Shown here in pieces: positions 12,600 through 44,428 of a stretch of 64,000 bases of DNA. The notes beneath the pieces are model-generated. The model had not been told where the DNA came from. It saw only the letters and a program-made list of their open reading frames with translations, and ran no database searches. The stretch lies in the IMG/VR virus record IMGVR_UViG_3300044614_001780. One strand, given 5' to 3'. Positions within the stretch are counted from its first letter, which is position 1; each line of letters starts with the position of its first letter. The position numbers and the translations under genes were made by a program. Source of the DNA: a virus.

Positions 12600-13910
12600 T
12601 TACCTATTGGTAGATCCGTAAAGCCCATAACTATCACGGATTAGTTTTAAACTAGTTACAACTTGATTTCCCTCGAAGTGGTGTCGTAATTCTTTAATCA
12701 AATAATTTCCACTTTGTTGTTTATCAATTTGTTTCTTATCTGTCATTTCAATTGCTGGAAATTCCGCATAGATTAACTCTCCAGCTTTCAGATTTACGTT
12801 GCATGGTACTACCATATTTAGTGACTGTGTGAACAAAATGTTATATCTCGAAGCAGATTTTGCCATATCTGCAACATCTCTGCCAGATTCTTTTGTTACA
12901 GTTTCAGTATCTAAAACACCTCTATCTGAAGTTCTTACTAAAATTCTTGTCCACGAATCTCCCAATTCTTTAGACACAGCAATTGTGTCATCTGTTCCTA
13001 GTGTATTTTTTATTTGGTCTTTTAACTTATACTGATATATGTCCATATGTCCAGTATAAAAATCATAAAAGTATGTTTTATTGGAATACATTCCAACCCT
13101 TAAACTTTTTAGTAGGTCAATATTTTTTTCAATATTGTAGTTTAATATTATAAAAGAATTTTGCTGTTGGTTTGCAGAAATTGCACCAGTAAAAGTATAT
13201 TTTGGTATATTCTTTGAGTCTGCTGAAGAAGAACCTACTTGAGTGTTTGAAACTAAACTATCAATACTTTTAAAATTAAATCCATCTCTGTTCTCATAAA
13301 ACAAATATCCTGCAGTTCCTTTTGCTTCACCAGTATTTCCTCCACCAGAAACTCCACCAGAAGATGCTGGCATTGCCTTTGGTCCTAACCAAGTCAGTAC
13401 TGTAAATGGTTTTCTGCTATTTGAAATAAAGCTATAACTATTTGAAGTATTTTCTATATTTTTTTCTTTATACTTTTCCGTCTTTAAATCATTTTTTAAT
13501 ATTGCTTCTACTGTTGTTTTTATATTTCCACCATATTTCCTAAAACATCTTGTTGTTTCATTTGTGATACCTTCTCTTGATACGAGGTGTAAAGTGAATG
13601 TTTCTCTGGTATCTTTTGCCATTACATCACTAACTTTAAAAACATACATTGAATATGTTTCATCCAAAGTAAATTCTCCAGAAGCAGTAGTTACACTAAT
13701 AGAAACTCTCTCTCCTCCTCTTATTGGTAGAAAATTATAAAGAGAAGTTGTATTTGAAACCATCATACTCATAGTTACACATGGAGAAAGAATGTCTTCA
13801 AAATAATCACAAAACAAAATAGAGTTTGTGATGTCAATTTTTTTCTTTCCATCAAGAGATTCAATTACAACAAAATTATATTTTAAACCTTCTATTGCTG
13901 GATTTGACAT
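12600..13910 (-). CDS. Baseplate hub protein (gp27-like)
   Basis: YFEDILSP..GYLFYENRDGFNFKSID..SGNYLIKELRHHF..LKLIRDS; position just before gp5. Confidence 0.65.
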   Translation of the reverse strand: MSNPAIEGLKYNFVVIESLDGKKKIDITNSILFCDYFEDILSPCVTMSMMVSNTTSLYNFLPIRGGERVSISVTTASGEFTLDETYSMYVFKVSDVMAKDTRETFTLHLVSREGITNETTRCFRKYGGNIKTTVEAILKNDLKTEKYKEKNIENTSNSYSFISNSRKPFTVLTWLGPKAMPASSGGVSGGGNTGEAKGTAGYLFYENRDGFNFKSIDSLVSNTQVGSSSADSKNIPKYTFTGAISANQQQNSFIILNYNIEKNIDLLKSLRVGMYSNKTYFYDFYTGHMDIYQYKLKDQIKNTLGTDDTIAVSKELGDSWTRILVRTSDRGVLDTETVTKESGRDVADMAKSASRYNILFTQSLNMVVPCNVNLKAGELIYAEFPAIEMTDKKQIDKQQSGNYLIKELRHHFEGNQVVTSLKLIRDSYGLYGSTNR

Positions 13911-16042
13911 TATGTTTGCGAAAGATTGGTTAAAAGAAGAGACTTCATTAAACTATTTACCACTTGAGATGGTGGTGTTCCCATTACAGTGGGTGTGGAA
14001 TTACTATTACCACCAGGAGCAGTTATAACAGAAGGTGGACTAGAACTTGATTGAGATTGTTGTCCTTCTATTGGAATTAAAACTATAGATGAACCTGGAG
14101 AATTATATTCTGGATAATCTGAAATATTTTTTCCCAATTTTGATAATTCCTCTGGAGCAAACATAGATGGGTCTACACCCATTCCACCCATTCCACCAAC
14201 ATTAGACTTGAGTAAATTTTGAAGCTTATTATTGTATTTGGTATAATCTGGATGAACTTTATCTTTTGCATTAAATCCCCCACCAAACTGAACAAAACCA
14301 GGAAATTCATTTGCAAGTGCTTGTAGTTTTGGATTCATTGCTGCCAAATCTCCTCTGTCAACACTTGTCCCCATCAATTGAACTCCCTTTGCTCCCATTT
14401 TCTGAGCATATTGTAATTGTTGACGAACTGTTGCTAAATCTGAAGTATCATTGGAAATACCAGAAGATAATCTAATAAGTTTACCTTTTAAATCTTGATT
14501 CTGAAGCATTCCCATAACATCTTTTGGACTTGCTCCGACTGTAGCAGTTCCTGCAGAACCAGAAGAATCCTTTGACCCCTTTGCTATGCTATCTCCTATA
14601 GTAAGCATTGGTGCTGCACCAATATCATTTGAAGTGAATTTTCCATTCATAGAACTTCCAGGTGCTGTCGCTGCTTGCGTTCCAGTTTTTATTGGTGCAA
14701 CTGCTGGAGTTTTTGGTGCGGTTCTTAAAAATGGTCTTGGGTCTATTAATTTTCCTGAAGTATTATAAAGTTCAAAATGCAAATGAGGAAAATCTGGAGA
14801 ACTTGCCTTATCTGCTGGTGAAATAGTGCCTATTTTTTGTCCTGTTTTAACTTCTGTCCCTGTAGAAACATTTGATAAAACATGAACATATCTGGTCATA
14901 CTTCCATCTTTATGTTTGATGCCAATTGTTTGACTACTTCCTCCTCCTTTTTGCCAAGCATATCCACGTCCAACTTCAACTACAGTTCCTGACATTGCTG
15001 CTAAAACAGGATCTCCTGCTTTTTGATCTGCAATATCTTGTCCAGCATGAGACCCATGTGATCTTGCTGCTCCAAATTGTGCTCCACCATAAGTGCTTAC
15101 ATGCCCAGTAACAAATGGAGCAACTCTTTCAACATTATCAAATCCTGGATAATTTGCATCTGTAACACCTTGGTCGTTTACTCCAGGTCCCATATTATTT
15201 GGGTCCGCAGAAATATTATCGGTATATGTTCCTGGTCCTATTTCTCCACCAGATACAGAAAAACCCATTGCAAAATTACTAAATTTATCCACAACACTTG
15301 AAAATTTGTCTAGTGCATTTTTAAATCCACCAGAACCTTCCGACAATCCTTTTTGTTTTTGTTCTTGTGCCTTGAGTCTTTCTTTTTGCTTTTGTTCTAA
15401 TGATTTTTCACCAGTAACTCCCTCATATGCTCTATCTGCAGCAAACCCACCAACAAAATTACCTGCCATACTCCCAATAACAAATCCAACTCCAGGAATT
15501 GGTATCAATGTTTGCCCTATAGCACCACCAAGTAAACTTCCAGCAAGAGCACCTCCAGTACCTGCTGCTGCTTTGCCAATAGATTCCCCCTCAGCAAGTC
15601 CAGTTGCAAAATCAAGTCCAGCAAAAATACTGTTTACAATTCCAATTGATCTCAACCCAGTAAATCTTAAACCTTGTCCTCTTGGAATTGGGGTTGCTTG
15701 CCTTGAAGGTTTTGAAGATGTTTTTGCTGGCTCACCAAGTTTTCCTTTTCCAGGGAACATATTTCCAAGAAAACCACCAACATCTAAAGCACCACCAACT
15801 AGTGACCTTAATAAATTACCAACATTCCCAAAATTATTAGCAACATTTAAATTTGCTAGTTCTTTTATTTTTCTTTTTGGTGGTAATTTTATGGTTTGAA
15901 GAGACTTGGTTTCTTTAACCAAAAAAGTAGAAAATGATTTATATTCTGACTGCATTTTTGACAAGTCACGTTTAGTCTTGCCGTTATACGAAGCAATACT
16001 ATTAAATGAAGATACTAATGGAGATGTAATTGCTTTTGCCAT
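13910..16042 (-). CDS. Virion protein with M23 peptidase and SGNH/GDSL-like domains
   Basis: HAGQD, YVH and PHLHFE (M23); IGDSIA..ISND..KDKVHP (SGNH-like); Gly-zipper segment. Confidence 0.75.
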   Translation of the reverse strand: MAKAITSPLVSSFNSIASYNGKTKRDLSKMQSEYKSFSTFLVKETKSLQTIKLPPKRKIKELANLNVANNFGNVGNLLRSLVGGALDVGGFLGNMFPGKGKLGEPAKTSSKPSRQATPIPRGQGLRFTGLRSIGIVNSIFAGLDFATGLAEGESIGKAAAGTGGALAGSLLGGAIGQTLIPIPGVGFVIGSMAGNFVGGFAADRAYEGVTGEKSLEQKQKERLKAQEQKQKGLSEGSGGFKNALDKFSSVVDKFSNFAMGFSVSGGEIGPGTYTDNISADPNNMGPGVNDQGVTDANYPGFDNVERVAPFVTGHVSTYGGAQFGAARSHGSHAGQDIADQKAGDPVLAAMSGTVVEVGRGYAWQKGGGSSQTIGIKHKDGSMTRYVHVLSNVSTGTEVKTGQKIGTISPADKASSPDFPHLHFELYNTSGKLIDPRPFLRTAPKTPAVAPIKTGTQAATAPGSSMNGKFTSNDIGAAPMLTIGDSIAKGSKDSSGSAGTATVGASPKDVMGMLQNQDLKGKLIRLSSGISNDTSDLATVRQQLQYAQKMGAKGVQLMGTSVDRGDLAAMNPKLQALANEFPGFVQFGGGFNAKDKVHPDYTKYNNKLQNLLKSNVGGMGGMGVDPSMFAPEELSKLGKNISDYPEYNSPGSSIVLIPIEGQQSQSSSSPPSVITAPGGNSNSTPTVMGTPPSQVVNSLMKSLLLTNLSQT

Positions 16043-34020: not shown

Positions 34021-34581
34021 TCAATGAGCATTTTCACTCATCAATCCAATCAAAAGGTGAGTTGCTTCTGAAAATCTATCAACATAATGAATCAACTTCA
34101 TCTCTTCATTATTGAGGAATCCATTATCAAGCATTTCTTCTTCAACCCAATGCTTGAGTGTTCTCCACATTCTACCTACACAAATGATTGGTTTTTTATC
34201 AATGTGATTAACTTGAACCAATTGATAAATCATTGCCATCTCAAGAAGAGTACCAATACCTCCAGGAGTTACAATAAAGGCATCACAATCAGCAAAAGTT
34301 TTTAATCGAGAATAAAAAGTTTGATGCTTTTCGTATTCTTGTACATAAGGATTTACACCCTCCTCAAATGGAAGATGTATTGCCTCTGCTACAGAACAAA
34401 GAGAGTTTCCAACACAAACACTCATTGCCCCTTTATTTGCCGCTTCCATAGTTCCTGGGCCACCTCCAGTAACTACTATCCATCCTTGAGATGCAATGTT
34501 TCTTCCAAGTTTTTCCACTGCTTGATAAAGTCCAGAAGTGGGACTTGTTCTTGCAGATCCAAATACTGCTATTTTTTTCAT
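34021..34581 (-). CDS. LOG-family nucleotide 5'-monophosphate nucleosidase
   Basis: AVFGSAR..TGGGPGTMEAAN..PGGIGTLLE motif; ATG at 34581. Confidence 0.9.
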   Translation of the reverse strand: MKKIAVFGSARTSPTSGLYQAVEKLGRNIASQGWIVVTGGGPGTMEAANKGAMSVCVGNSLCSVAEAIHLPFEEGVNPYVQEYEKHQTFYSRLKTFADCDAFIVTPGGIGTLLEMAMIYQLVQVNHIDKKPIICVGRMWRTLKHWVEEEMLDNGFLNNEEMKLIHYVDRFSEATHLLIGLMSENAH

Positions 34582-34613
34582 ATTTTTTTTATATGAACCA
34601 TTAATAGTTATAC

Positions 34614-34709
34614 TTACCCCCAATAAATTACCCCGAGAGTGAATAAAACAAACACAAGAACTGTGAATATCATCATACCTACACCTGCCCAAATGATCCA
34701 GGGTTCCAT
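34614..34709 (-). CDS. 31-aa single-TM peptide
   Basis: MEPWIIWAGVGMMIFTVLVFVLFTLGVIYWG; read by eye. Confidence 0.5.
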   Translation of the reverse strand: MEPWIIWAGVGMMIFTVLVFVLFTLGVIYWG

Positions 34710-35024: not shown

Positions 35025-36107
35025 TCAACCGATGGAAGGTGCGGTCAGAGCAACAGGAGTTGCTTCGGCAGCAGCCAAGTCCAGAGGAAAGTTGTGTGCG
35101 TTTCTCTCGTGCATCACTTCCATCCCGAGACCAGCACGGTTCAGAACATCTGCCCAAGTATTGAGCACACGACCTTGACTATCAACGATGGACTGGTTGA
35201 AGTTGAAACCATTGAGGTTGAATGCCATGGTGCTAACACCAAGAGCAGTGAACCAGATGCCAACTACAGGCCATGCAGCAAGGAAGAAGTGCAGTGAACG
35301 TGAGTTATTGAACGATGCGTATTGGAAAATCAGACGACCGAAATAACCATGAGCAGCTACGATGTTGTATGTTTCTTCTTCTTGTCCGAACTTATAACCG
35401 TAGTTCTGTGACTCATTCTCTGTCGTCTCACGGACGAGAGAAGAGGTGACAAGAGATCCGTGCATAGCAGAGAAAAGAGAACCACCGAAGACACCAGCAA
35501 CTCCCAACATGTGGAAAGGATGCATAAGAATGTTGTGTTCTGCCTGGAAAACAAGCATGTAGTTGAAAGTTCCCGAAATCCCAAGAGGCATTGCGTCAGA
35601 GAAGGATCCTTGACCAAAGGGATAGACCAGGAACACTGCAGAAGCAGCAGCAACGGGTGCAGAGTAGGCAACACAAATCCAAGGACGCATACCCAGTCGG
35701 TAAGACAGTTCCCATTCACGACCCATGTAGGCATAGATACCGATTAGAAAATGGAAGACGACCAATTGGAATGGTCCACCATTATATAGCCACTCATCTA
35801 GGGAAGCAGCTTCCCAAATTGGATAAAAGTGCAGTCCAATTGCGTTGGACGAAGGAATCACAGCACCAGAGATGATGTTGTTTCCGTACATGAGTGAACC
35901 AGCAACGGGTTCACGGATACCATCAATGTCCACAGGAGGAGCACCAATGAATGCAATAATGAAACAGGTTGTAGCAGCAAGTAGGCAAGGAATCATCAGG
36001 ACCCCAAACCAACCGACATAAAGACGATTATCGGTTGAAGTAACCCAGTTGCAGAACTGTTCCCAAATATTTGATTGTGATTGTTGACGTGAAATTGTAG
36101 CAGTCAT
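35025..36107 (-). CDS. psbA: Photosystem II D1 protein
   Basis: 360 aa, [27 protein letters not shown] plus C-terminal extension; Gln at the 130-equivalent position; no intron. Confidence 0.99.
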
Positions 36108-36124
36108 TTTTTCTTAAAAGAGTA

Positions 36125-36218
36125 GTAAGACCATCAGGGAAATGGTGGTGATACTATTCCCCAGTCACCCTCAGACTGGGTATGAGAGACGTAATTTATA
36201 CACCCTAGAGGTCTCGGT
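36125..36218 (-). ncRNA. Structured psbA leader, probably PhotoRC-II motif
   Basis: Stems GAGAC/GTCTC, CCCAGTC/GACTGGG and a CCA..TGG hairpin in the 5' UTR of phage psbA; family name recalled, not searched. Confidence 0.6.
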
Positions 36219-36273
36219 TTAAGGGGTGTTGACAATGTTAAGATTTATGAGAAATCCGTAACATTTGTTTACC

Positions 36274-36307
36274 TATTTATAGTAGCACGGTCAGAAATCC
36301 CTGTCAA
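36274..36307 (-). promoter_or_regulatory. Overlapping sigma70 and late promoters of psbA
   Basis: TTGACA-17nt-TACTAT, with the -10 running into TATAAATA. Confidence 0.7.
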
Positions 36308-36325
36308 GCCATCCTTAGATGACAA

Positions 36326-36502
36326 CTAACCGAACAACTCCGATCTCCAATTACTTTCTTTATCCTTTAATGCAGAAAGGATATGTTCATTCTCTTGCAT
36401 TTGCCTTTCTTCTTTTATTTGTTTTTCAATAATTTTTTCTTGATGTTTTTGTTTAACATCTTTCATATCGATATGTCTCATCGCTCTAGAATAAGTATTC
36501 AT
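36326..36502 (-). CDS. 58-aa hypothetical protein
   Basis: MNTYSRAMRHIDMKDVKQKH..SNWRSELFG; late-promoter-like site upstream. Confidence 0.55.
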   Translation of the reverse strand: MNTYSRAMRHIDMKDVKQKHQEKIIEKQIKEERQMQENEHILSALKDKESNWRSELFG

Positions 36503-36580
36503 TGAAAGTATTAAACTAACTACATTTTTAAGTATTTATTTTCACCTAAATATTTTTAGTGTATACCACAAAATAAGAAA

Positions 36581-37042
36581 ATGAAAAGACTATTATTTGT
36601 TTTTTCGTTATTCTTCACCATTCCCGTCAGTGCTGCTGAAATCACCTCAAGAATCACCGATTCCGTACAATTAAAAGTTGACGGTGCTGCTATTCAATCA
36701 ACCAGAATAGGAGCATCCTACTCCGCATCAGGAACCAATATCCAATCATCCTCATTCGGTGGAGTTGGTGGTGCAGGAACTTATGACATCAATACTCCAG
36801 GTCAAGCATTTAGTTTCTCAGAATCTATTAATGCTGCTGATACTCCTGTAACAACTCAAACAGTTACTAATGGTGTTATTGGAACTCCAAATCTTTATGG
36901 AGATAGTGTAACTCAAGTTGGTGGTGAGAAAGGAACTCTCGCAGGAACCTTATCCCCAACTGGTGTTCCTACTGTAACTGCTGGTGGTGCTGGAACTACT
37001 GCAACTGCACAACGTAGTATTGAACTGAGCGTATTCAAATGA
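36581..37042 (+). CDS. Exported beta-rich protein A
   Basis: Signal peptide ending VSA-AE; Gly/Thr/Ser-rich; paralogous to next gene. Confidence 0.75.
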   Translation: MKRLLFVFSLFFTIPVSAAEITSRITDSVQLKVDGAAIQSTRIGASYSASGTNIQSSSFGGVGGAGTYDINTPGQAFSFSESINAADTPVTTQTVTNGVIGTPNLYGDSVTQVGGEKGTLAGTLSPTGVPTVTAGGAGTTATAQRSIELSVFK

Positions 37043-37398
37043 GACATATCCTAGCAGGTTTATTCCTGCTAGGGTTTTGTTCTCCTGCCCTAGCAGAAAG
37101 TGTTGTACCTAATTTCACTAGGGGTACAATCAATGCGACTACAGAATCTACTACAAAAGTTATAGAAACAATCCGCCAAGTTGAATATACAACTGGCACA
37201 TCATATACTGTGACTGGAACTAATATTAACATTCCTGGCACTCCTCAACAGGGAGCAAATTATAGTATCATGAATCAAGGTGCTCCATTCCAGTTCAGTG
37301 AAACCTATCTCGGCCCTGGAGTGGCAAAAGAAACATGGATAGATCGCACCACAGAAACACAATCCACCACTACATCAATTTCTGTCTTTACGCAATAA
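37039..37398 (+). CDS. Exported beta-rich protein B
   Basis: Signal peptide ending ALA-ES; shares GxSYxxxGTNI and FxFSE motifs with protein A. Confidence 0.75.
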   Translation: MRHILAGLFLLGFCSPALAESVVPNFTRGTINATTESTTKVIETIRQVEYTTGTSYTVTGTNINIPGTPQQGANYSIMNQGAPFQFSETYLGPGVAKETWIDRTTETQSTTTSISVFTQ

Positions 37399-37919
37399 TT
37401 TCAACTGGAACTGCATTTGCACAAAGCACTCCAGCACCAAGTAATACTAATATTGCAGGACCTTCAGCATCTGCTACGGGTAACGTAACAAACCAGGCAG
37501 TTCAGGTGTTACAAGGTCCATATGCATTGAACACTTATGGTGGTGGGGTAAGTTGCCAAGGAGCAACGTTTTCACTTTCTCCATTTGGAATGAGTAGTAA
37601 TAACAATAGTGATGACCCAGAATCATTCGCATCACGAAATGGTAACTGGGGAATTTCTGCTGGACTTAATATTCCATTGGATGGAACTCTAATGAACTTG
37701 TGCAAGAAAAGAGCAGAAACTGAAATTGCTAGACAACAGGCAGAAACTGATAAAGCAAGATTAGATTTTGAACTTGTAAGATTATTAAAATGCGGTGAAG
37801 CACATAAGAATGGAATAATGTTCCACCCAGAAAGTCCTTACTACAAAGTTTGTGCAGATGTAGTTGTGAAGTATCCACGAGTTGAGGATGTGGTTAATGG
37901 AACCAATAGAATTAATTAA
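37335..37919 (+). CDS. Exported protein with amphipathic beta-hairpin and Cys-containing helical domain
   Basis: AFA-Q signal site; NWGISAGLNIPLD strand; coiled coil; four Cys in mature part; start uncertain. Confidence 0.7.
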   Translation: MDRSHHRNTIHHYINFCLYAIISTGTAFAQSTPAPSNTNIAGPSASATGNVTNQAVQVLQGPYALNTYGGGVSCQGATFSLSPFGMSSNNNSDDPESFASRNGNWGISAGLNIPLDGTLMNLCKKRAETEIARQQAETDKARLDFELVRLLKCGEAHKNGIMFHPESPYYKVCADVVVKYPRVEDVVNGTNRIN

Positions 37920-38775
37920 TAATCCAAATCTAAGACCAATCATCGGAAATAATCCGATTAACATTCCAAATCCAAACACCAATAGAATTGCTGGTCCTTC
38001 TGTAATTTCTACTATAGAAAGACCAGCACTTCGTAGTGTTGAAGCACCAGTAGTGCGTGGGTTAGAAGTACCCGTTGTTGATGTACCAAATACTACGATT
38101 AAATATCCAGTTATTAATGTTCCAACTCAAGCAGAATTTGATGCTGCAGTAAAAGCAGAAAGGGAAAAACAACAGCAGGAAGAAAAACCAAAAGAGAGGG
38201 GATTACCTGATACTACTCCCCCACCTCAACTGCCTCAGGTTGCTCAAACCCCCCCTGCTCAAACTCCCATTGCTGAAATACCTGCAAATAAACCAACAAC
38301 TACACCAACATTTAGTGTCTATGGAGTCAATATTAATTTACCTGACCCTTCTCTTGTTGCTACGGCTGGTGCTGTCGCAGTAGTTACCACTGCTGCTACG
38401 ATAGCATCAACAACTGTTCTGAATGCATTAAAAAATGCAGCAGAACCAATGATTAAAGAAGCAACAAAGAACAAGTTTAAAATTAAAATCAAACAAGTTA
38501 AACCAGTTCTACATTATGTTTTAGCAGAAGGTGGTCACGTAGATGTTTTTGAATACTCTGCTGAAGGAACTCGTTTAGTCGAACAAGTAACTAATGTAGA
38601 ACAATACATTCGTGACCAAGTTGAAATCAATGCCCTCTATGAGATTGATAACAAAATCATTATTGATGATGTAATCAAAGATAAGTTCACAAAAGAAGGC
38701 AAAGAAAGATTTAAACCTCTCTTTGCCCCTGCTAAAAAAATTGCTAAAAAATTATCTGCTAAGTTCTCAATCTGA
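37882..38775 (+). CDS. Pro-rich membrane-anchored protein
   Basis: Pro-rich N half, hydrophobic ATAGAVAVVTTAAT segment, basic C terminus. Confidence 0.7.
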   Translation: MRMWLMEPIELINNPNLRPIIGNNPINIPNPNTNRIAGPSVISTIERPALRSVEAPVVRGLEVPVVDVPNTTIKYPVINVPTQAEFDAAVKAEREKQQQEEKPKERGLPDTTPPPQLPQVAQTPPAQTPIAEIPANKPTTTPTFSVYGVNINLPDPSLVATAGAVAVVTTAATIASTTVLNALKNAAEPMIKEATKNKFKIKIKQVKPVLHYVLAEGGHVDVFEYSAEGTRLVEQVTNVEQYIRDQVEINALYEIDNKIIIDDVIKDKFTKEGKERFKPLFAPAKKIAKKLSAKFSI

Positions 38776-38901
38776 AGTAAATTTGGAAATAATCCACACA
38801 ACAATTATTGCTGGCAATTGAACTAAAACGTTATAAAGAATTTCTAGAAAGATATTATCTTTCTCTTCTTTACGTTTATCCTTTGCTGGTGCCGTGGTCA
38901 T
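38767..38901 (-). CDS. 44-aa membrane peptide
   Basis: MTTAPAKDKRKEEKDNIFLEILYNVLVQLPAIIVVWIISKFTSD; read by eye. Confidence 0.45.
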   Translation of the reverse strand: MTTAPAKDKRKEEKDNIFLEILYNVLVQLPAIIVVWIISKFTSD

Positions 38902-38994
38902 TTTGTAACACCTTAAACAAATCTTTACTATTTAATAGTTAATATAAAAATGTAACGATTTTTTAAGTGTTTTTCGTGTTGGTCTCATAACAAA

Positions 38995-39195
38995 TTATTT
39001 TTTCCCCTTTAACTTAAAGGCAGCATCACCAAGAAAAGAACCAACTGCAAGTAAAAGTACTTTAGCATAAGCATCACGACTTGTACTTTCCAGTTCCACT
39101 TGACCTTCTGTACGAATCGCAACTGATTCCACAGCAGAAATCATTAATGCTGCCCAGATAATTAAAAATAATCTAACAATATTGAAATATATCAC
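38995..39195 (-). CDS. Hypothetical two-TM protein
   Basis: Two hydrophobic segments; coupled to the nuclease stop. Confidence 0.55.
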   Translation of the reverse strand: MIYFNIVRLFLIIWAALMISAVESVAIRTEGQVELESTSRDAYAKVLLLAVGSFLGDAAFKLKGKK

Positions 39196-39605
39196 TTTTT
39201 CCTTTTTGCCAGAAGTTCATCAAAGTTCTTTTTCTTTGTTCCACCATCATATTCCCAAGCATAACCTTCATTAACCATTTGATTGTTGATGGATATTTCT
39301 TCTCCATTAATAAACAGATGACCGATAATGCGACCATACTTCTCGGTGCTATCGGGTAGTTCTGTTTTAATGAGAATATCTTTAGCAAATTCTAATCTGT
39401 GCTTGAGCCAGTCTTTAACTTCGAGACCAAGTTTCTTTTCATACGCATCAGTTGTCCTGCTCTCTGGGGTATCGATACCAGCAAGACGAATTCGCTTAGT
39501 AAGGGAGATATCAAAACCCAAATCAATATCAGCGTCAATAGTGTCACCATCTACAACCTTGTGTACTGAACGTATTCTATAGACGTAAGGATCTTTGTCA
39601 GCCAT
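39192..39605 (-). CDS. Thermonuclease (SNase) family nuclease
   Basis: VVDGDTI..RIRLAGIDTPE..KYGRI..MVNEGYA. Confidence 0.9.
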   Translation of the reverse strand: MADKDPYVYRIRSVHKVVDGDTIDADIDLGFDISLTKRIRLAGIDTPESRTTDAYEKKLGLEVKDWLKHRLEFAKDILIKTELPDSTEKYGRIIGHLFINGEEISINNQMVNEGYAWEYDGGTKKKNFDELLAKRKK

Positions 39606-39817
39606 TAGAATGGTAATTTGAACTTCTCAGTATTTAGTTTAGGAATGGGTAGTTTTTCAAATGCTTTTGATACTTGCTTCTCCACAACAGCACCAACAAA
39701 TGCTTCTGGATTGTCTAAGATTTTCTGTGCTTTTTGATAAGTAATGTATGCTCCTACACCAATTGCAGCACTAATGCCCAGACTTGTGATTGATAGAATT
39801 AGACTCAGATGTTTCAT
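39605..39817 (-). CDS. Hypothetical membrane-anchored protein
   Basis: N-terminal TM helix; 70 aa. Confidence 0.6.
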   Translation of the reverse strand: MKHLSLILSITSLGISAAIGVGAYITYQKAQKILDNPEAFVGAVVEKQVSKAFEKLPIPKLNTEKFKLPF

Positions 39818-39923
39818 CTTTCATCTCCTCGTTTGCTAACTTTAATATGTAGTAAATGATATATGCAGTAAAGGCAAGTCCGCAGGATAATAATATTACA
39901 ACACCCCAAGGAAATTCATTCAT
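39771..39923 (-). CDS. 50-aa single-TM peptide
   Basis: MNEFPWGVVILLSCGLAFTAYIIYYILKLANEEM..; read by eye. Confidence 0.5.
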   Translation of the reverse strand: MNEFPWGVVILLSCGLAFTAYIIYYILKLANEEMKDETSESNSINHKSGH

Positions 39924-40217: not shown

Positions 40218-40331
40218 TCAATTTTTCTTACCACCGTTTTTTGCTTTCTTTGCAGAGGCATTGCCCTGGTTCTGCTTGGATTGTTTTCCACCAGCAGAAC
40301 CTTTCTTGCCTTTATTTGATGATTTGGACAT
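40218..40331 (-). CDS. 37-aa Lys/Gly-rich basic peptide
   Basis: MSKSSNKGKKGSAGGKQSKQNQGNASAKKAKNGGKKN; TAATG coupling. Confidence 0.5.
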   Translation of the reverse strand: MSKSSNKGKKGSAGGKQSKQNQGNASAKKAKNGGKKN

Positions 40332-40672
40332 TATGCCCCTGTACGAGGTTGAACGTATCCTTCACCATCTTCTACTTTGGTTTCAAGTGCTTCAACTCTT
40401 GCTTCAAGAGTTTCTGGTGCTTCTGGTTCTGGTGGAGCAGAAACTACCTCTTCTCTTTTAGGTTCCTCTTTTTTTTCATCTTCATCATCACCACCCTTCT
40501 TCATTGTATTGATACCAAAAGTGGCAGCAGATGCAGTAAAGACTGTCGCAATAAATGTGGGGTCCATTTTGGATAGAGCCCCAGCATAACTTGCGGTAAG
40601 AAGAGCAGCAGACCATCCAAGGATGGCAATACGAATTACTTGCCCCAAAGCATTCTCCTTTTTCTTATCCAT
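40331..40672 (-). CDS. Two-TM membrane protein (holin-like topology)
   Basis: Two hydrophobic helices and a highly charged C terminus; near lysin genes. Confidence 0.55.
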   Translation of the reverse strand: MDKKKENALGQVIRIAILGWSAALLTASYAGALSKMDPTFIATVFTASAATFGINTMKKGGDDEDEKKEEPKREEVVSAPPEPEAPETLEARVEALETKVEDGEGYVQPRTGA

Positions 40673-40711: not shown

Positions 40712-42877
40712 TCAAAACTTAAATTTAAGTTTCGCAGACACCACTGTATTAGAAACACCATCATTGATTTGATGTATTCCTTCAACGATTACCATTTCCT
40801 TATAATCAACAGAAGCATTTGCCTCAATCATTCCGCTGGTTTCATAAGAACCACCGACAGTTATGCCGAATAAATCCTTTTTCTTACCACCAAAACGATG
40901 TGAAATATTTAGACCAACCTCACCAGAATGTGAAGTTTTGTTTATAACATCAACGGTTCTTCTGGATTGAACTGAACCAGTTTCAGTAAAACCATCTCTC
41001 TGATAATTACCAACAGTGTATCCAACAAATGGAGTTATGTTCTTATTGAGATGCCAGAATAATCTGTTATTAACAAACCACTCTTTTCCTTGTGTTGAAC
41101 TTTCATTATTAAAGATACCCTGAACATTTCTTGATACATTATATTTGTTCTGGGAGAAACCAGCATTAGTTAAGAGTGATAATGTATTTCCACGGAACAT
41201 ATTAAAGAAACCATAATGACTCTTAACAAGATTAGAAGTGCTATCAACACCACCTAAATCAATATTCACATTATTATACTGACCACCAATAGTCCAGGTT
41301 GGTTTGATATCAATTTCTAATCCACCACCAATAATCAGAGACTTACCAGTGTATCCATAATCACCAGAAGACCATGAATAATAGTTATTGCTGAATACTC
41401 TTACTCTGTCTGAATCTGGTTTAGATGGTTCATGAATAAGAAGGTTTTGTAATCCACCACCAATCTTATCTAAAACATCGTATTGGTCTGTGCGTCCAGA
41501 AAGAACATCATGAGTATTCTTTGTATCAACAGAAAGAAGTAAAGAACTTATAACAGTTCCATCACTATAAGTATCTTGCTGTAATAGAGGAGTTTGACTT
41601 GTAGTTGCAAAATCTCTTCTAATCTTTTGAACTCCATCCTTCTCAGATGCCTTATGAGTTACTTTGGTAGTAACAACAACTGGAAGTCCTGGTGCAGGAA
41701 CAGTTACAGAGTTTAATAATGTTGGTGGTTCTGGTTCTGGTGTGGGTTCAGGAGTTGGCTCTGGTTCTGGTGTTGGCTCAGGTGTAGGTTCTGGAGTTGG
41801 ATCTGGTTCTGGAGTGGGTTCTGGTTCTGGTGTTGGCTCAGGTGTAGGTTCTGGTTCTGGAGTAGGTTCTGGTTCTGGAGTAGGTTCTGGTGTTGGCTCA
41901 GGTGTAGGTTCTGGTTCTGGAGTAGGTTCTGGTTCTGGAGTGGGTTCTGGTTCTGGAGTTGGAGTTGGTGCTACTTCATCAACAGATGGTGCATCTGGAT
42001 TGTTTGGAGCAACAGGTGTAAATGATTGACCGTTCTGTGTTGTAGTTCCAGGCTGACTATCAACTAAAAGAACAGGAGAAAGTGCAGTATCTCCAAGATT
42101 GAATACTGCAAATCCTAAGAGATAATCACCATCAGCACCTACTTGATATGTTGAATACTGCCATCCAGTAGAACCATAAGTTCCAGTTGAATAATCACCA
42201 GTTCCTGGATTGGTAAATCCAAGCAGTGCATAGTTTTGAAGTTGATTATTAACTGTTACTGTTGGAGATGAACCTGTTCCCTGATAGACAAGTGATGTAA
42301 TAGAACCATCATTGAAAGGAACATAATCAGTTCCAATATAGTTCCAAGACATTGTATAAACTGTTCCAGTTTGCAAAGTCACTGACTTTGTAATCCAAGC
42401 AGCATCAGTTGGATTTGGATTTCCTAAACCAGATTGTTGCTGTTGTTGAGTGAGAAGGTCTTTAATTGCTTGGTTTTCTGCTGCAGTTAATCCAAGTGCT
42501 TCTGTTGCTTGGTTAAATGTTGCTTGACCATTTGGTTGTAGTGCAGCACCAGCATCCCCATAAGGAGCAAACTCCCAAGTTGTTGGTGTTACTGCGGGTG
42601 CGTGGTATGGGTTAGGAGAACCATCTTGGAGAGTTGGACTTCCTACTGCTCCGTGAGAAGGTGCATTGAAGATTACTGGATTATCGACAACACTAACACC
42701 CGTTCCCTGTCCTGTGATTGTGCTGTCTAATGTTCCTGTTTGAGTTCCAGTATTCCATCCTGAGGTATTTCCAGACTCAAAATCTGTACCAGAAATAGTA
42801 TCTGCAAATGCAATTGTAGGCACTCCAATAAGAAGCGCAGACGCTGCAGACAGCGCCCTTTGCGTGTAGTTAGACAT
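40712..42877 (-). CDS. Autotransporter-like surface protein with Pro-Glu/Pro-Thr stalk and C-terminal beta-barrel
   Basis: Signal peptide (AFA-D), beta-rich N domain, (PE/PT)n linker, amphipathic strands, C-terminal AKLKFKF. Confidence 0.75.
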   Translation of the reverse strand: MSNYTQRALSAASALLIGVPTIAFADTISGTDFESGNTSGWNTGTQTGTLDSTITGQGTGVSVVDNPVIFNAPSHGAVGSPTLQDGSPNPYHAPAVTPTTWEFAPYGDAGAALQPNGQATFNQATEALGLTAAENQAIKDLLTQQQQQSGLGNPNPTDAAWITKSVTLQTGTVYTMSWNYIGTDYVPFNDGSITSLVYQGTGSSPTVTVNNQLQNYALLGFTNPGTGDYSTGTYGSTGWQYSTYQVGADGDYLLGFAVFNLGDTALSPVLLVDSQPGTTTQNGQSFTPVAPNNPDAPSVDEVAPTPTPEPEPTPEPEPTPEPEPTPEPTPEPTPEPEPTPEPEPTPEPTPEPEPTPEPDPTPEPTPEPTPEPEPTPEPTPEPEPPTLLNSVTVPAPGLPVVVTTKVTHKASEKDGVQKIRRDFATTSQTPLLQQDTYSDGTVISSLLLSVDTKNTHDVLSGRTDQYDVLDKIGGGLQNLLIHEPSKPDSDRVRVFSNNYYSWSSGDYGYTGKSLIIGGGLEIDIKPTWTIGGQYNNVNIDLGGVDSTSNLVKSHYGFFNMFRGNTLSLLTNAGFSQNKYNVSRNVQGIFNNESSTQGKEWFVNNRLFWHLNKNITPFVGYTVGNYQRDGFTETGSVQSRRTVDVINKTSHSGEVGLNISHRFGGKKKDLFGITVGGSYETSGMIEANASVDYKEMVIVEGIHQINDGVSNTVVSAKLKFKF
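41724..41970. repeat. Tandem 6/12/18-bp repeats encoding (PEPEPT/PEPT)n
   Basis: ggttct/ggagta/ggtgtt hexamer array, about 80 codons. Confidence 0.95.
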
Positions 42878-42977: not shown

Positions 42978-43649
42978 TTATCCTTTTTTCCAAGCATCTC
43001 CTTCTGCTTTTCTTCTACGAGCAAGTCCTGCTTCTACATTGGAACCAGGATTTCTGTAGAGATAAAGTGCATCTGGAACTTTGTCCCATTCTTTATTCTT
43101 TAATGTACGAGTAATGGTATTGAAGTTATCACCACCATAAAAACCAGCACCAAGATTATAAGCAAAAGAAAGTAGAGCACCTCTTTTACCATCACTCATC
43201 TCATTCCAATGTGGAATTTTACGAAGTGAAGGAAGAAACTGGTTCTTGCACTGACTAATCAATAGTTCATCAGCTTCCTGTTGAGTGATTTGATCACCAA
43301 GTTGGAATGGTCCACCATCCTTCTTACGAGTAGAACCCCAACCAATGGTGATTGGAAGTCCACCAGATAGAGGATCTGGGTATGCCTTTAGATGACATCC
43401 TTCAAACTCCTTAATTAATTTAATACCAGTCATTGGCATATCGTCACCACCTGCTACAGGAGCGGCAGCAGATGGTGCTGATGCTGGTGCCGCATTACCC
43501 TTTTTTCCTCTATAAATCTCCGCCCAATCTACATTATCTTCTAGATATTTGACTGGCAGATTATCTTCCAGCCACTGCACTGCCTTTACGTGATTTGGAT
43601 TCTTCTCGTCATAAAACTTGAAGAAGTTGTGTAAATCAATTCTTGCCAT
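42978..43649 (-). CDS. Lysozyme (GH24) with N-terminal accessory domain
   Basis: IKEFEGCHLKAYPDP..TIGWGST..ALLSFAYNLG..GLARRRKAE. Confidence 0.9.
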   Translation of the reverse strand: MARIDLHNFFKFYDEKNPNHVKAVQWLEDNLPVKYLEDNVDWAEIYRGKKGNAAPASAPSAAAPVAGGDDMPMTGIKLIKEFEGCHLKAYPDPLSGGLPITIGWGSTRKKDGGPFQLGDQITQQEADELLISQCKNQFLPSLRKIPHWNEMSDGKRGALLSFAYNLGAGFYGGDNFNTITRTLKNKEWDKVPDALYLYRNPGSNVEAGLARRRKAEGDAWKKG

Positions 43650-43756: not shown

Positions 43757-44428
43757 TCAGTCGAAGATCCTTCCCCACCCATCATTACCTCCTGGGCACC
43801 AACGATGCTTAAGAACTGCTTTAGTGTAAATGGTCTTCTTACCATTTGTGACTGGACCAGTATAGTTATCATTCAGAGAACCATATGGATCATTGACATA
43901 ATATCCTTTACCGTCTGGTGTCTTACCAATTACAACACACATGTGCCCACCAGTAGGTGCAGATAAAGAACCCCTATGCAGGATACCAATAACAACAGGT
44001 TTCCCAGCATCAAGACTCTTATCAATGTCAGCAAAAGAAAGATTGTAACTAAAGTGTGACTTAATTCCATAACCTTGTAGAACCTTCGTCTGAACCGCAT
44101 GGTCAGTCGTGTCACCAATAGCAAATACTTTCTTAACATACTCATCGTCACCTTTAATGCTTCCTGGCTTGAGGAAAGCAAGACACATAGCACACGATGA
44201 AGAGTTGCAAGTTCTATGTGCATCTCTATAGTTATCAACCTGGTTGAAATATGGTACTGCTAGAACTGCTGGAGTTGGTGGTTTAGTTCTAAAAATGCCA
44301 ATCCAGTCAGTCTCGGAATCATCCATAAACTCAGCAGGTAGGTTATCTTCTAACCATTGAACTGCTGCTACATGGTTCGAATTACCATCATCATAATACT
44401 TAAAAAAGTTATGAAGATCTAACGTCAT
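43757..44428 (-). CDS. C39-like cysteine peptidase with the same N-terminal domain
   Basis: VPYFNQ..RTCNSSSCAM..GGHMCVVIG..VNDPYG. Confidence 0.85.
   Translation of the reverse strand: MTLDLHNFFKYYDDGNSNHVAAVQWLEDNLPAEFMDDSETDWIGIFRTKPPTPAVLAVPYFNQVDNYRDAHRTCNSSSCAMCLAFLKPGSIKGDDEYVKKVFAIGDTTDHAVQTKVLQGYGIKSHFSYNLSFADIDKSLDAGKPVVIGILHRGSLSAPTGGHMCVVIGKTPDGKGYYVNDPYGSLNDNYTGPVTNGKKTIYTKAVLKHRWCPGGNDGWGRIFD

Follow-up and report, generated by a model that had tools for sequence, protein, structure and literature searches.

A conserved module of predicted exported and membrane proteins was found in the IMG/VR virus record IMGVR_UViG_3300044614_001780, of which a stretch of 64,000 nucleotides (nt), here called the window, was analysed. 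The module comprises four overlapping genes, g1 to g4, and a linked gene of the family DUF6450 (Table 1). Judged by homology, it is conserved, restricted to cyanophages and common to T4-like and T7-like cyanophages. Its products very probably act as an exported, non-virion module of the host envelope that is expressed in the middle to late phase of infection. The module may well span the envelope and disrupt the outer membrane at lysis, a candidate role that we place just short of probable. It would then form the arm of the lysis system for the outer envelope layers and be a functional equivalent of spanins.

Distribution and gene order

The window was recognised as a T4-like cyanophage by psbA and by genes for baseplate, tail and replication. 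Its closest named relative was the freshwater Synechococcus phage DSL-LC03, with 76.9% DNA identity across half of the region. An original prediction, made from the DNA letters alone, had described four overlapping plus-strand genes at positions 36581 to 38775. All four open reading frames (ORFs) are there, each overlapping its neighbour, and every peptide string quoted in the prediction occurs in the translations. The overlap of g1 and g2 amounts to 4 nt (ATGA) and that of g2 and g3 to 64 nt, as read from the sequence. The overlap of g3 and g4 is 38 nt from the start codon TTG at 37882 or 23 nt from the ATG at 37897. The ATG is the likelier start of g4, because the ESM Atlas record begins there and marine homologues begin with ME-I-P. 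The four ORFs were regarded as real genes and not chance ORFs because g3 matched 2835 protein clusters at E<=1e-3 and 462 phage records.

These 462 records were obtained by tblastn from a set of 50,697 and are all labelled cyanophage or uncultured marine, with T4-like and T7-like phages among them. The g2 protein matched 285 phage records. The genome collection yielded 26 matches, all of them metagenome-assembled genomes, single-amplified genomes or draft contigs of mixed labels, including several contigs of 188-194 kb. The phage-type order of the module was present in 24 of these 26 loci. There was no sign of a cellular homologue among the 26 matches, integration not having been tested. Profiles of g2 and g3 found nothing in Syn5, S-PM2 and the siphovirus P-SS2, with Syn9 and P-SSP7 as positive controls.

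In sequence and order, the module corresponds to the clusters T4-GC 237, 236, 235, 234 and 218 of Sullivan et al. (2010; PMC3037559), represented by gp167-gp164 in Syn9, PHM2_197-194 and 191 in P-HM2 and PSSM4_140-137 and 133 in P-SSM4. According to the supplement of that study, T4-GC 234, 235 and 237 occur in 15 and T4-GC 236 in 12 of 16 marine cyanomyoviruses, and T4-GC 234-237 are named only 'hypothetical protein' there (PMC3037559). The remark in the original prediction that similar genes occur in other cyanophages without an assigned function applies to these clusters. Among the papers listed by literature searches, none dealt with the module by title or abstract, subscription-only papers being outside the scope of these searches. 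In the freshwater lineage of the window, the module differs from the marine T4-GC clusters by its place beside psbA and by g4 on the same strand.

Gene order was surveyed with iterated profiles in 240 IMG/VR loci, selected in three sets of 80 by a g3 of freshwater myovirus, marine myovirus or podovirus type. The counts for g1 and g2 refer to loci with room for the gene in question. The g2 gene was located directly upstream of g3 and overlapped it in 73/73 freshwater, 76/76 marine and 75/75 podovirus loci, a total of 224/224; the overlap measured 64 nt in freshwater myoviruses and 166 nt in marine ones. Upstream of g2, g1 was present in 124/124 myovirus loci (58/58 freshwater, 66/66 marine) and in 0/64 podovirus loci. 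A synteny survey had been proposed as a check of co-conservation, which these counts bear out. The usual place of g4 was adjacent and on the same strand in freshwater myoviruses (65/80), adjacent but convergent in marine myoviruses (60/80) and upstream on the same strand in podoviruses (64/80). By these counts, the constant core of the module is g2 plus g3, g4 is always nearby but not always co-transcribed, and g1 is an addition of the myoviruses. The four-gene operon of the original prediction thus stands for the window, but g4 is a loose member in relatives.

The DUF6450 gene was kept near the module in 70/80 podovirus loci; among myovirus loci flanked by 3 kb or more, it was present in 63/69 freshwater and 41/49 marine ones. 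It corresponds to T4-GC 218, which lies beside the module in P-SSM4 and P-HM2; in DSL-LC03, it abuts g4. T7-like phages carry g4, DUF6450, g2 and g3 as one overlapping block, with DUF6450 between g4 and g2 (NATL1A-7 CYIG_00060, P-SSP7 PCPG_00042). An ORF resembling the small terminase subunit (TerS) followed the podovirus block in 57/57 loci with room for it, at a median gap of 346 nt; the profile used for it was derived from an ORF with a match to phrog_891 ('terminase small subunit'). In T7, the holin gene 17.5 follows the tail fibre gene 17 and precedes the small terminase gene 18, after which come the spanin genes 18.5 and 18.7. A third gene order, DUF6450-g1-g2-g3 on the same strand, was seen in three genome-collection loci (L251, L270 and L271).

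Expression and virion content

The motif CTAAATA precedes g1 and resembles the core of a T4-type late promoter, the consensus of which is TATAAATA. The shorter TAAATA was present within 90 nt upstream of g1 in 52/59 freshwater and 38/66 marine myovirus loci, against a background of 23 sites on the plus strand of the 64 kb, or ~0.03 per 90 nt. The motif is late-promoter-like and suggests promoter activity. A sigma-70 scan of 36100-39300 returned five promoter-like sites versus 9.6 expected, and no terminator after g4 was found in the scan of the same region.

In the S1 table of Thompson et al. (2016; PMC5082946), the P-HM2 genes PHM2_197 and PHM2_194, counterparts of g1 and g4, are classified as late and PHM2_195, the g3 counterpart, as middle. 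PHM2_196 is listed there as late in the light and middle in the dark, and the DUF6450 gene PHM2_191 as late (PMC5082946). For podoviruses, genes 29-51 of P-SSP7 are given as late in a second-hand quotation in Huang et al. (2020; PMC7885011); in S-SBP1, that paper assigns 15 late genes to the right arm. From their position, the podovirus module genes would be among those late genes. Contigs of RNA libraries from two runs of one study covered 36925-37149, 37100-37256 and 37552-37748 of the window with no mismatch. They match parts of g1/g2 and g3 and are weak evidence of transcription, since DNA carry-over is possible.

T4-GC 234-237 have no entry in the column 'Existence of Proteomic Data?' in the supplement of Sullivan et al. 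(2010; PMC3037559). The virion proteomes of S-SM1 and Syn9, which both carry the module, fed that column (PMC3037559); S-PM2 does not carry it. Products found as ordinary virion components would have counted against the original prediction, which the missing flag in this column supports on this point. It is very improbable that the proteins are virion or assembly factors of low abundance, such as tail-tip or ejection proteins, that were missed by the proteomes. Such a function would agree with late expression, with the place of the genes among tail and packaging genes in T7-like phages and with the podovirus tail knob and collar proteins among the weak fold neighbours of g2 (Z 3.6-4.2). However, capsids and tails are assembled in the cytoplasm, from which the Sec-type signal peptides predicted for three of the proteins would export them. 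In addition, T4-GC 234-237 have no entry in the proteomic column although S-SM1 and Syn9 carry the genes, and the myovirus module sits among non-structural genes.

A role in the envelope during the long latent period was weighed as well, either as a channel or scaffold for nutrient uptake or upkeep or as an antiholin-like periplasmic sensor or regulator of lysis timing. We consider it unlikely. The proteins are predicted to be exported and are unflagged in the virion-proteomics column, g3 is a middle gene in P-HM2, and an adjoining 721-amino-acid (aa) autotransporter-like protein indicates that the phage places proteins in the host envelope; the absence of the module from Syn5 and S-PM2 fits an accessory function. 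Against this, no transporter, binding-protein or regulator family was matched, most members are late, and the close grouping with DUF6450 ahead of the small terminase gene points to lysis.

Predicted export, topology and structure

Three of the five module proteins (g1-g3) were predicted to be exported and two (g4 and DUF6450) to reside in the inner membrane. The N-termini of g1, g2 and g3 start with basic residues, followed by a hydrophobic core and a small-x-small site, and this layout was kept across relatives. The small-x-small site was present in 123/127 g1, 208/224 g2 and 232/232 g3 homologues. These N-termini look like Sec-type signal peptides, as had been stated in the original prediction for g1 and g2 and, in terms of export, for g3, whose short hydrophobic core is followed by a site that looks cleavable.

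Only g2 is a member of DUF6322 (PF19847), with 53 bits and E 5.3e-14 against a gathering cut-off of 30.6; g1 reached 15.5 bits and stayed below this cut-off. The two proteins were related to each other in BLASTP (E 4e-4, 38% over 39 aa) and in profile-profile alignment with hhalign (probability 94.9%, E 4.3e-8, 85 columns). The g1 profile also found g2 ORFs, and 332 ORFs were matched by both profiles. By these alignments, g1 and g2 are true paralogs, as originally claimed. A literature search for DUF6322 found no paper, subscription-only papers being outside its scope.

The AlphaFold model of g2 had a mean predicted local distance difference test (pLDDT) value of 83.1. It shows a long Thr-rich two-stranded beta ribbon with strands of ~25 residues (28-51 and 94-118) plus a small head. 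The strands are polar on both faces and are therefore not membrane-spanning, and hydrophobic residues gather at both ends of the chain. A V-x-P-x-F motif was found in 225/238 and a C-terminal S-[IV]-F-x-Q in 238/238 homologues. Foldseek, which had been suggested as a fold check, found no match of the g2 model in the PDB at E<=0.001 (best E 3.4e-3). Five matches at E<=0.001 in BFVD carried no functional name, two being uncharacterized phage proteins and three unnamed. In a wide search with VIA, 10 chains reached Z>=2 and none Z>=5, with a best Z of 4.2. The weak structural neighbours are stems of large beta barrels and rings. In shape, the ribbon resembles the stems of the phi29 tail knob, of lysenin and binary-toxin pores and of flagellar ring proteins; this likeness is weak (Foldseek E >= 3.4e-3, VIA Z <= 4.2), and the g2 strands differ from such stems in being polar on both faces.

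The g3 protein is marked by an invariant G-N-V-T-N-Q-A-V-Q motif and four invariant Cys in the mature part. Four or six Cys were present in the mature part of 228/232 homologues, and the four conserved cysteines fit disulfides outside the cytoplasm. The model of g3 was poor, with a mean pLDDT of 59.1 and a 42-residue helix as its only confident part. In place of the coiled coil of the original prediction, the model has this single helix. The g3 profile gave 0 matches at E<=1 against PDB sequences, and the ESM Atlas held only viral 'hypothetical protein' clusters for g3 and g4. A predicted complex of mature g3 with mature g2 scored 0.00 and 0.01, where the mark was 0.32; run without controls, the prediction gives no verdict. 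The start of g3 lies 64 nt inside g2, and the length of the overlap was identical in 73/73 freshwater loci. A programmed frameshift joining g2 and g3 was considered and dropped: within each myovirus group, the distance between the first in-frame ATG and the g2 stop is constant, so ordinary internal initiation is the simpler explanation for g3.

Further features of g3 homologues were noted. An acidic insert of variable length occurs in the loop that connects the beta part to the long helix, often with a D-x-D-x-D-G motif, which resembles calcium-binding repeats. The motif was present in 73/80 marine myovirus, 32/80 podovirus and 0/80 freshwater copies, and the inserts of longer g3 forms reach ~100 residues. 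Longer relatives of g3 numbered 387. Four of them were inspected and showed an upstream extension in an alternate frame, a low-complexity tail and an acidic insert of large size. A precomputed Pfam domain was absent from all 120 longer relatives listed, which thus gave no fusion clue. In P-SSP7 (GU071093.1), the g3 homologue is split over two frames, 37922-38290 (profile positions 3-139) and 38259-38429 (136-193), and lacks annotation in that record; a frameshift or a split gene could account for this, as could a sequencing error.

In the g4 protein, a Pro-rich, acidic N-domain is joined by one membrane segment rich in Ala and Thr to a basic C-terminal part. The hydrophobic segment comprises residues 157-180 with a Kyte-Doolittle hydropathy of 1.77, in agreement with the single segment and the Pro-rich character originally described, and would serve as membrane anchor. 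In 216/216 homologues, the flank on the C-side was more positive than that on the N-side, and the Pro-rich N-domain was net acidic. Under the positive-inside rule, this charge distribution would place the N-domain in the periplasm and the tail in the cytoplasm. Hence, g4 is predicted to be a single-span inner-membrane protein with N-out, C-in topology. Four or five Cys in the whole ORF were found in 72/216 homologues. All Cys of the marine examples inspected lie within the N-domain, which fits its periplasmic location. The gene diverges fast, as tblastn found 4 phage records versus 220 ORFs by profile, and g4 of the freshwater lineage of the window has an extra C-terminal domain of ~110 residues compared with marine forms.

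In the original prediction, g1 and g2 were subunits of a beta-rich filament, g3 an oligomeric outer-membrane pore and g4 a periplasm-spanning anchor, together remodelling the surface of the infected cell for superinfection exclusion, aggregation or grazer avoidance. We regard this assembly as improbable. It draws on the secreted paralog pair g1 and g2, on the long beta ribbon of g2, which would need partners, on the large beta-barrel protomers and spore-appendage fibres among the weak neighbours of g2 (Z 2.2-4.2) and on the Pro-rich anchor g4. Curli (CsgA/CsgB plus CsgG) are likewise made of a secreted paralog pair and further exported proteins. However, no curlin or CsgG match for g1-g4 was found at E<=1 in Pfam or NCBIfam, NCBIfam gave nothing above cut-off, and the TolC-type OEP family (PF02321) reached only 13.8 bits (E 0.053) with g3, below its gathering cut-off of 22. 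T7-like phages carry one paralog only, the polar faces of the g2 strands argue against insertion in a membrane, and in T7-like genomes the module occupies the lysis slot. It is expressed mid to late, in contrast to known exclusion genes such as T4 imm and sp, which belong to the early class. With the low pLDDT of g3, these results left the filament and pore without a match and the proposed surface remodelling unsupported.

Candidate role in lysis

The DUF6450 protein of the window is a member of PF20048 with 58.6 bits against a gathering cut-off of 25; its podovirus and marine myovirus neighbours reached 113-117 bits. Hydrophobic segments occupy residues 7-34 and 36-58, and the tail is charged and acidic; only this architecture makes the protein a holin-like candidate. 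A lysozyme is encoded on the same strand, 2.3 kb away. It has neither a signal peptide nor a hydrophobic segment and is the probable endolysin. A C39-like cysteine peptidase is a possible second cell-wall hydrolase, and the counterparts of both enzymes are labelled 'endolysin' in DSL-LC03. The genes for DUF6450, the signal-less lysozyme and the peptidase are grouped within 6 kb and are all directed towards the operon. Mid-to-late expression, the place before the small terminase gene and the linked two-helix protein with a nearby lysozyme make lysis a better fit than surface remodelling.

Kongari et al. (2018; PMC6139136) list 91 phages without an identifiable spanin, 20 of which infect Prochlorococcus or Synechococcus. 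P-SSP7, Syn9, P-HM2, P-SSM4 and others are among the spanin-less phages (PMC6139136). According to the same study, the part of an inner-membrane spanin (i-spanin) could be taken by an inner-membrane protein of N-out, C-in topology whose membrane segment is C-terminal (PMC6139136). This is the topology predicted for g4 in 216/216 homologues.

The course of lysis may be pictured as follows. The late DUF6450 protein would act like a holin and let the signal-less lysozyme reach the wall. The g4 protein would be a tether of reverse topology across the periplasm, and g3 with the beta-ribbon proteins g1 and g2 would form the part on the side of the outer membrane. Once the wall is cut, the complex would destabilise the outer membrane.

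Spanin membership was considered and rejected for the module, as two defining features of two-component spanins fail: it has no outer-membrane spanin (o-spanin) with a lipobox and no N-terminal i-spanin anchor. The module may still work like a spanin. An embedded or overlapped gene pair, a further spanin feature, is present, as g3 starts inside g2 in 224/224 loci. As in the module, Rz/Rz1 combine a Pro-rich partner with a helical one that has conserved cysteines. Overlapping genes and an inner-membrane anchor with exported partners are common to the module and the two-component spanins lambda Rz/Rz1 and T7 gp18.5/18.7 (PMC6139136), and both lie in a late block beside a small membrane protein. 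Unlike these spanins, the module is without a lipoprotein, its anchor is C-terminal with opposite topology, and three or four components are exported versus one; sequence similarity is lacking. Unimolecular spanins of the T1 gp11 type have a C-terminal membrane segment and a basic cytoplasmic tail, with the rest of the chain crossing the periplasm. The prediction for g4 has all three in common with them, but g4 has no N-terminal lipoprotein signal (0/216 with lipobox) and no hydrophobic N-terminus.

Several observations weigh against a function in lysis. A lipobox was found in 0/127 g1, 0/224 g2, 2/232 g3 and 0/216 g4 homologues, and no member of the module has the N-terminal anchor of an i-spanin. 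The export of an N-domain of 150-200 residues without a signal peptide, as proposed for g4, is unusual. DUF6450 had no match to a holin family even at E<=10, the g3 homologue is entered as 'Mid (C)' in the P-HM2 table, and the marine myovirus regions inspected (P-SSM4, Syn9 and P-HM2) have no annotated endolysin next to the module. Profiles did not find the module in Syn5 and S-PM2, which are also listed as spanin-less (Kongari et al. 2018; PMC6139136). The module is thus not a universal answer and may be dispensable. A simpler view given in that study is that the outer membrane of the hosts may be fragile enough to need no disruptor (PMC6139136).

A more specific version of the lysis function is that the five proteins represent a third kind of outer-membrane disruptor, lipoprotein-free and envelope-spanning, and distinct from spanins and from the cationic 'disruptin' peptides. 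This is rather doubtful. In such an apparatus, the g4 tether and g3, as a disulfide-stapled adaptor, would position the Thr-rich proteins g1 and g2. These would form a barrel-like ring whose hydrophobic tip (V-x-P-x-F, S-[IV]-F-x-Q) attacks the outer membrane from the periplasmic side after firing of the DUF6450 holin.

No photosynthetic cells on Earth are more abundant than Prochlorococcus and Synechococcus, whose lysis by phages sets the return of their carbon to the dissolved pool. How cyanophages open the outer membrane is an acknowledged gap, and Kongari et al. (2018; PMC6139136) ask about another route. The module is a concrete candidate, being common to T4-like and T7-like phages, composed of predicted exported and inner-membrane proteins, expressed mid to late and located in the lysis slot. 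If it acts in lysis, it would be a new protein architecture for crossing or breaking the Gram-negative envelope; as a third kind of disruptor, it would be the main way in which the most abundant phototrophs of the ocean are burst by T4-like and T7-like phages. If it does not, it would still be one of the few non-metabolic gene sets common to unrelated cyanophage families, suggesting a host-specific need.

Genomic context in the window

Table 1. Positions of the module genes and of neighbouring features in the window
Feature	Position	Strand	Description
710-aa protein	13910-16042	-	among baseplate genes; endolysin-/peptidase-like domain at residues 304-457
LOG / 'possible lysine decarboxylase' family protein	34021-34692	-	PF03641, E 7e-21; adjoins psbA
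psbA	35025-36107	-	
CTAAATA motif	36546..36552	+	29 nt upstream of g1 start
g1	36581-37042	+	predicted secreted, Gly/Ser/Thr-rich, 153 aa; phrog_564; T4-GC 237 (Syn9 gp167)
g2	37039-37398	+	predicted secreted DUF6322 protein, 119 aa; phrog_650; T4-GC 236 (Syn9 gp166)
g3	37335-37919	+	predicted exported, 194 aa; phrog_848/1755; T4-GC 235 (Syn9 gp165)
g4	37897-38775 (alternative start TTG 37882)	+	predicted Pro-rich membrane protein, 297 aa from TTG; T4-GC 234 (Syn9 gp164)
Small hydrophobic ORF	38995-39195	-	66 aa
SNase-like nuclease	39192-39605		
Small hydrophobic ORF	39605-39817	-	70 aa
Small hydrophobic ORF	39771-39923	-	50 aa
DUF6450 membrane protein	40331-40672	-	113 aa; PF20048, E 5.6e-16; T4-GC 218
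721-aa protein	40712-42877	-	signal-peptide-like start
Phage lysozyme	42978-43649	-	PF00959, E 1.6e-21
C39-like cysteine peptidase	43757-44428	-	PF13529, E 3.3e-14

Near-identical DNA was detected in lake and freshwater metagenomes, where 17 runs held at least half of the sampled words. The whole stretch or parts of it were found in 20 runs of 15 studies, and one run may be the source of this DNA. The module had been called the only plus-strand operon in the accessory half, which is roughly right, as the other plus-strand ORFs beyond 24 kb are five small ones without PHROG match. The PHROGs scan of 101 ORF translations of the window found no spanin and no holin.

The lysozyme and the C39-like peptidase begin with a very similar stretch of ~45 residues, as seen by eye in the translations. 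It could be a targeting or wall-binding module. The 710-aa protein of the baseplate region is probably distinct from the lysis enzymes, being carried in the virion as a wall hydrolase used at entry.

The 721-aa protein has an unusual position for an outer-membrane-like protein, between the lysozyme and DUF6450 genes. Its signal-peptide-like start is accompanied by a long Pro/Glu/Thr repeat, and its C-terminal half is 41% identical to an 'autotransporter outer membrane beta-barrel domain-containing protein' of DSL-LC03. It matched no PHROG family, and Pfam gave a low-complexity match only. Next to psbA, a protein of the LOG family is encoded. Between g4 and DUF6450, three small ORFs with strong hydrophobic segments flank an SNase-like nuclease; the 50-aa ORF alone among them has PHROG matches, all of unknown function.

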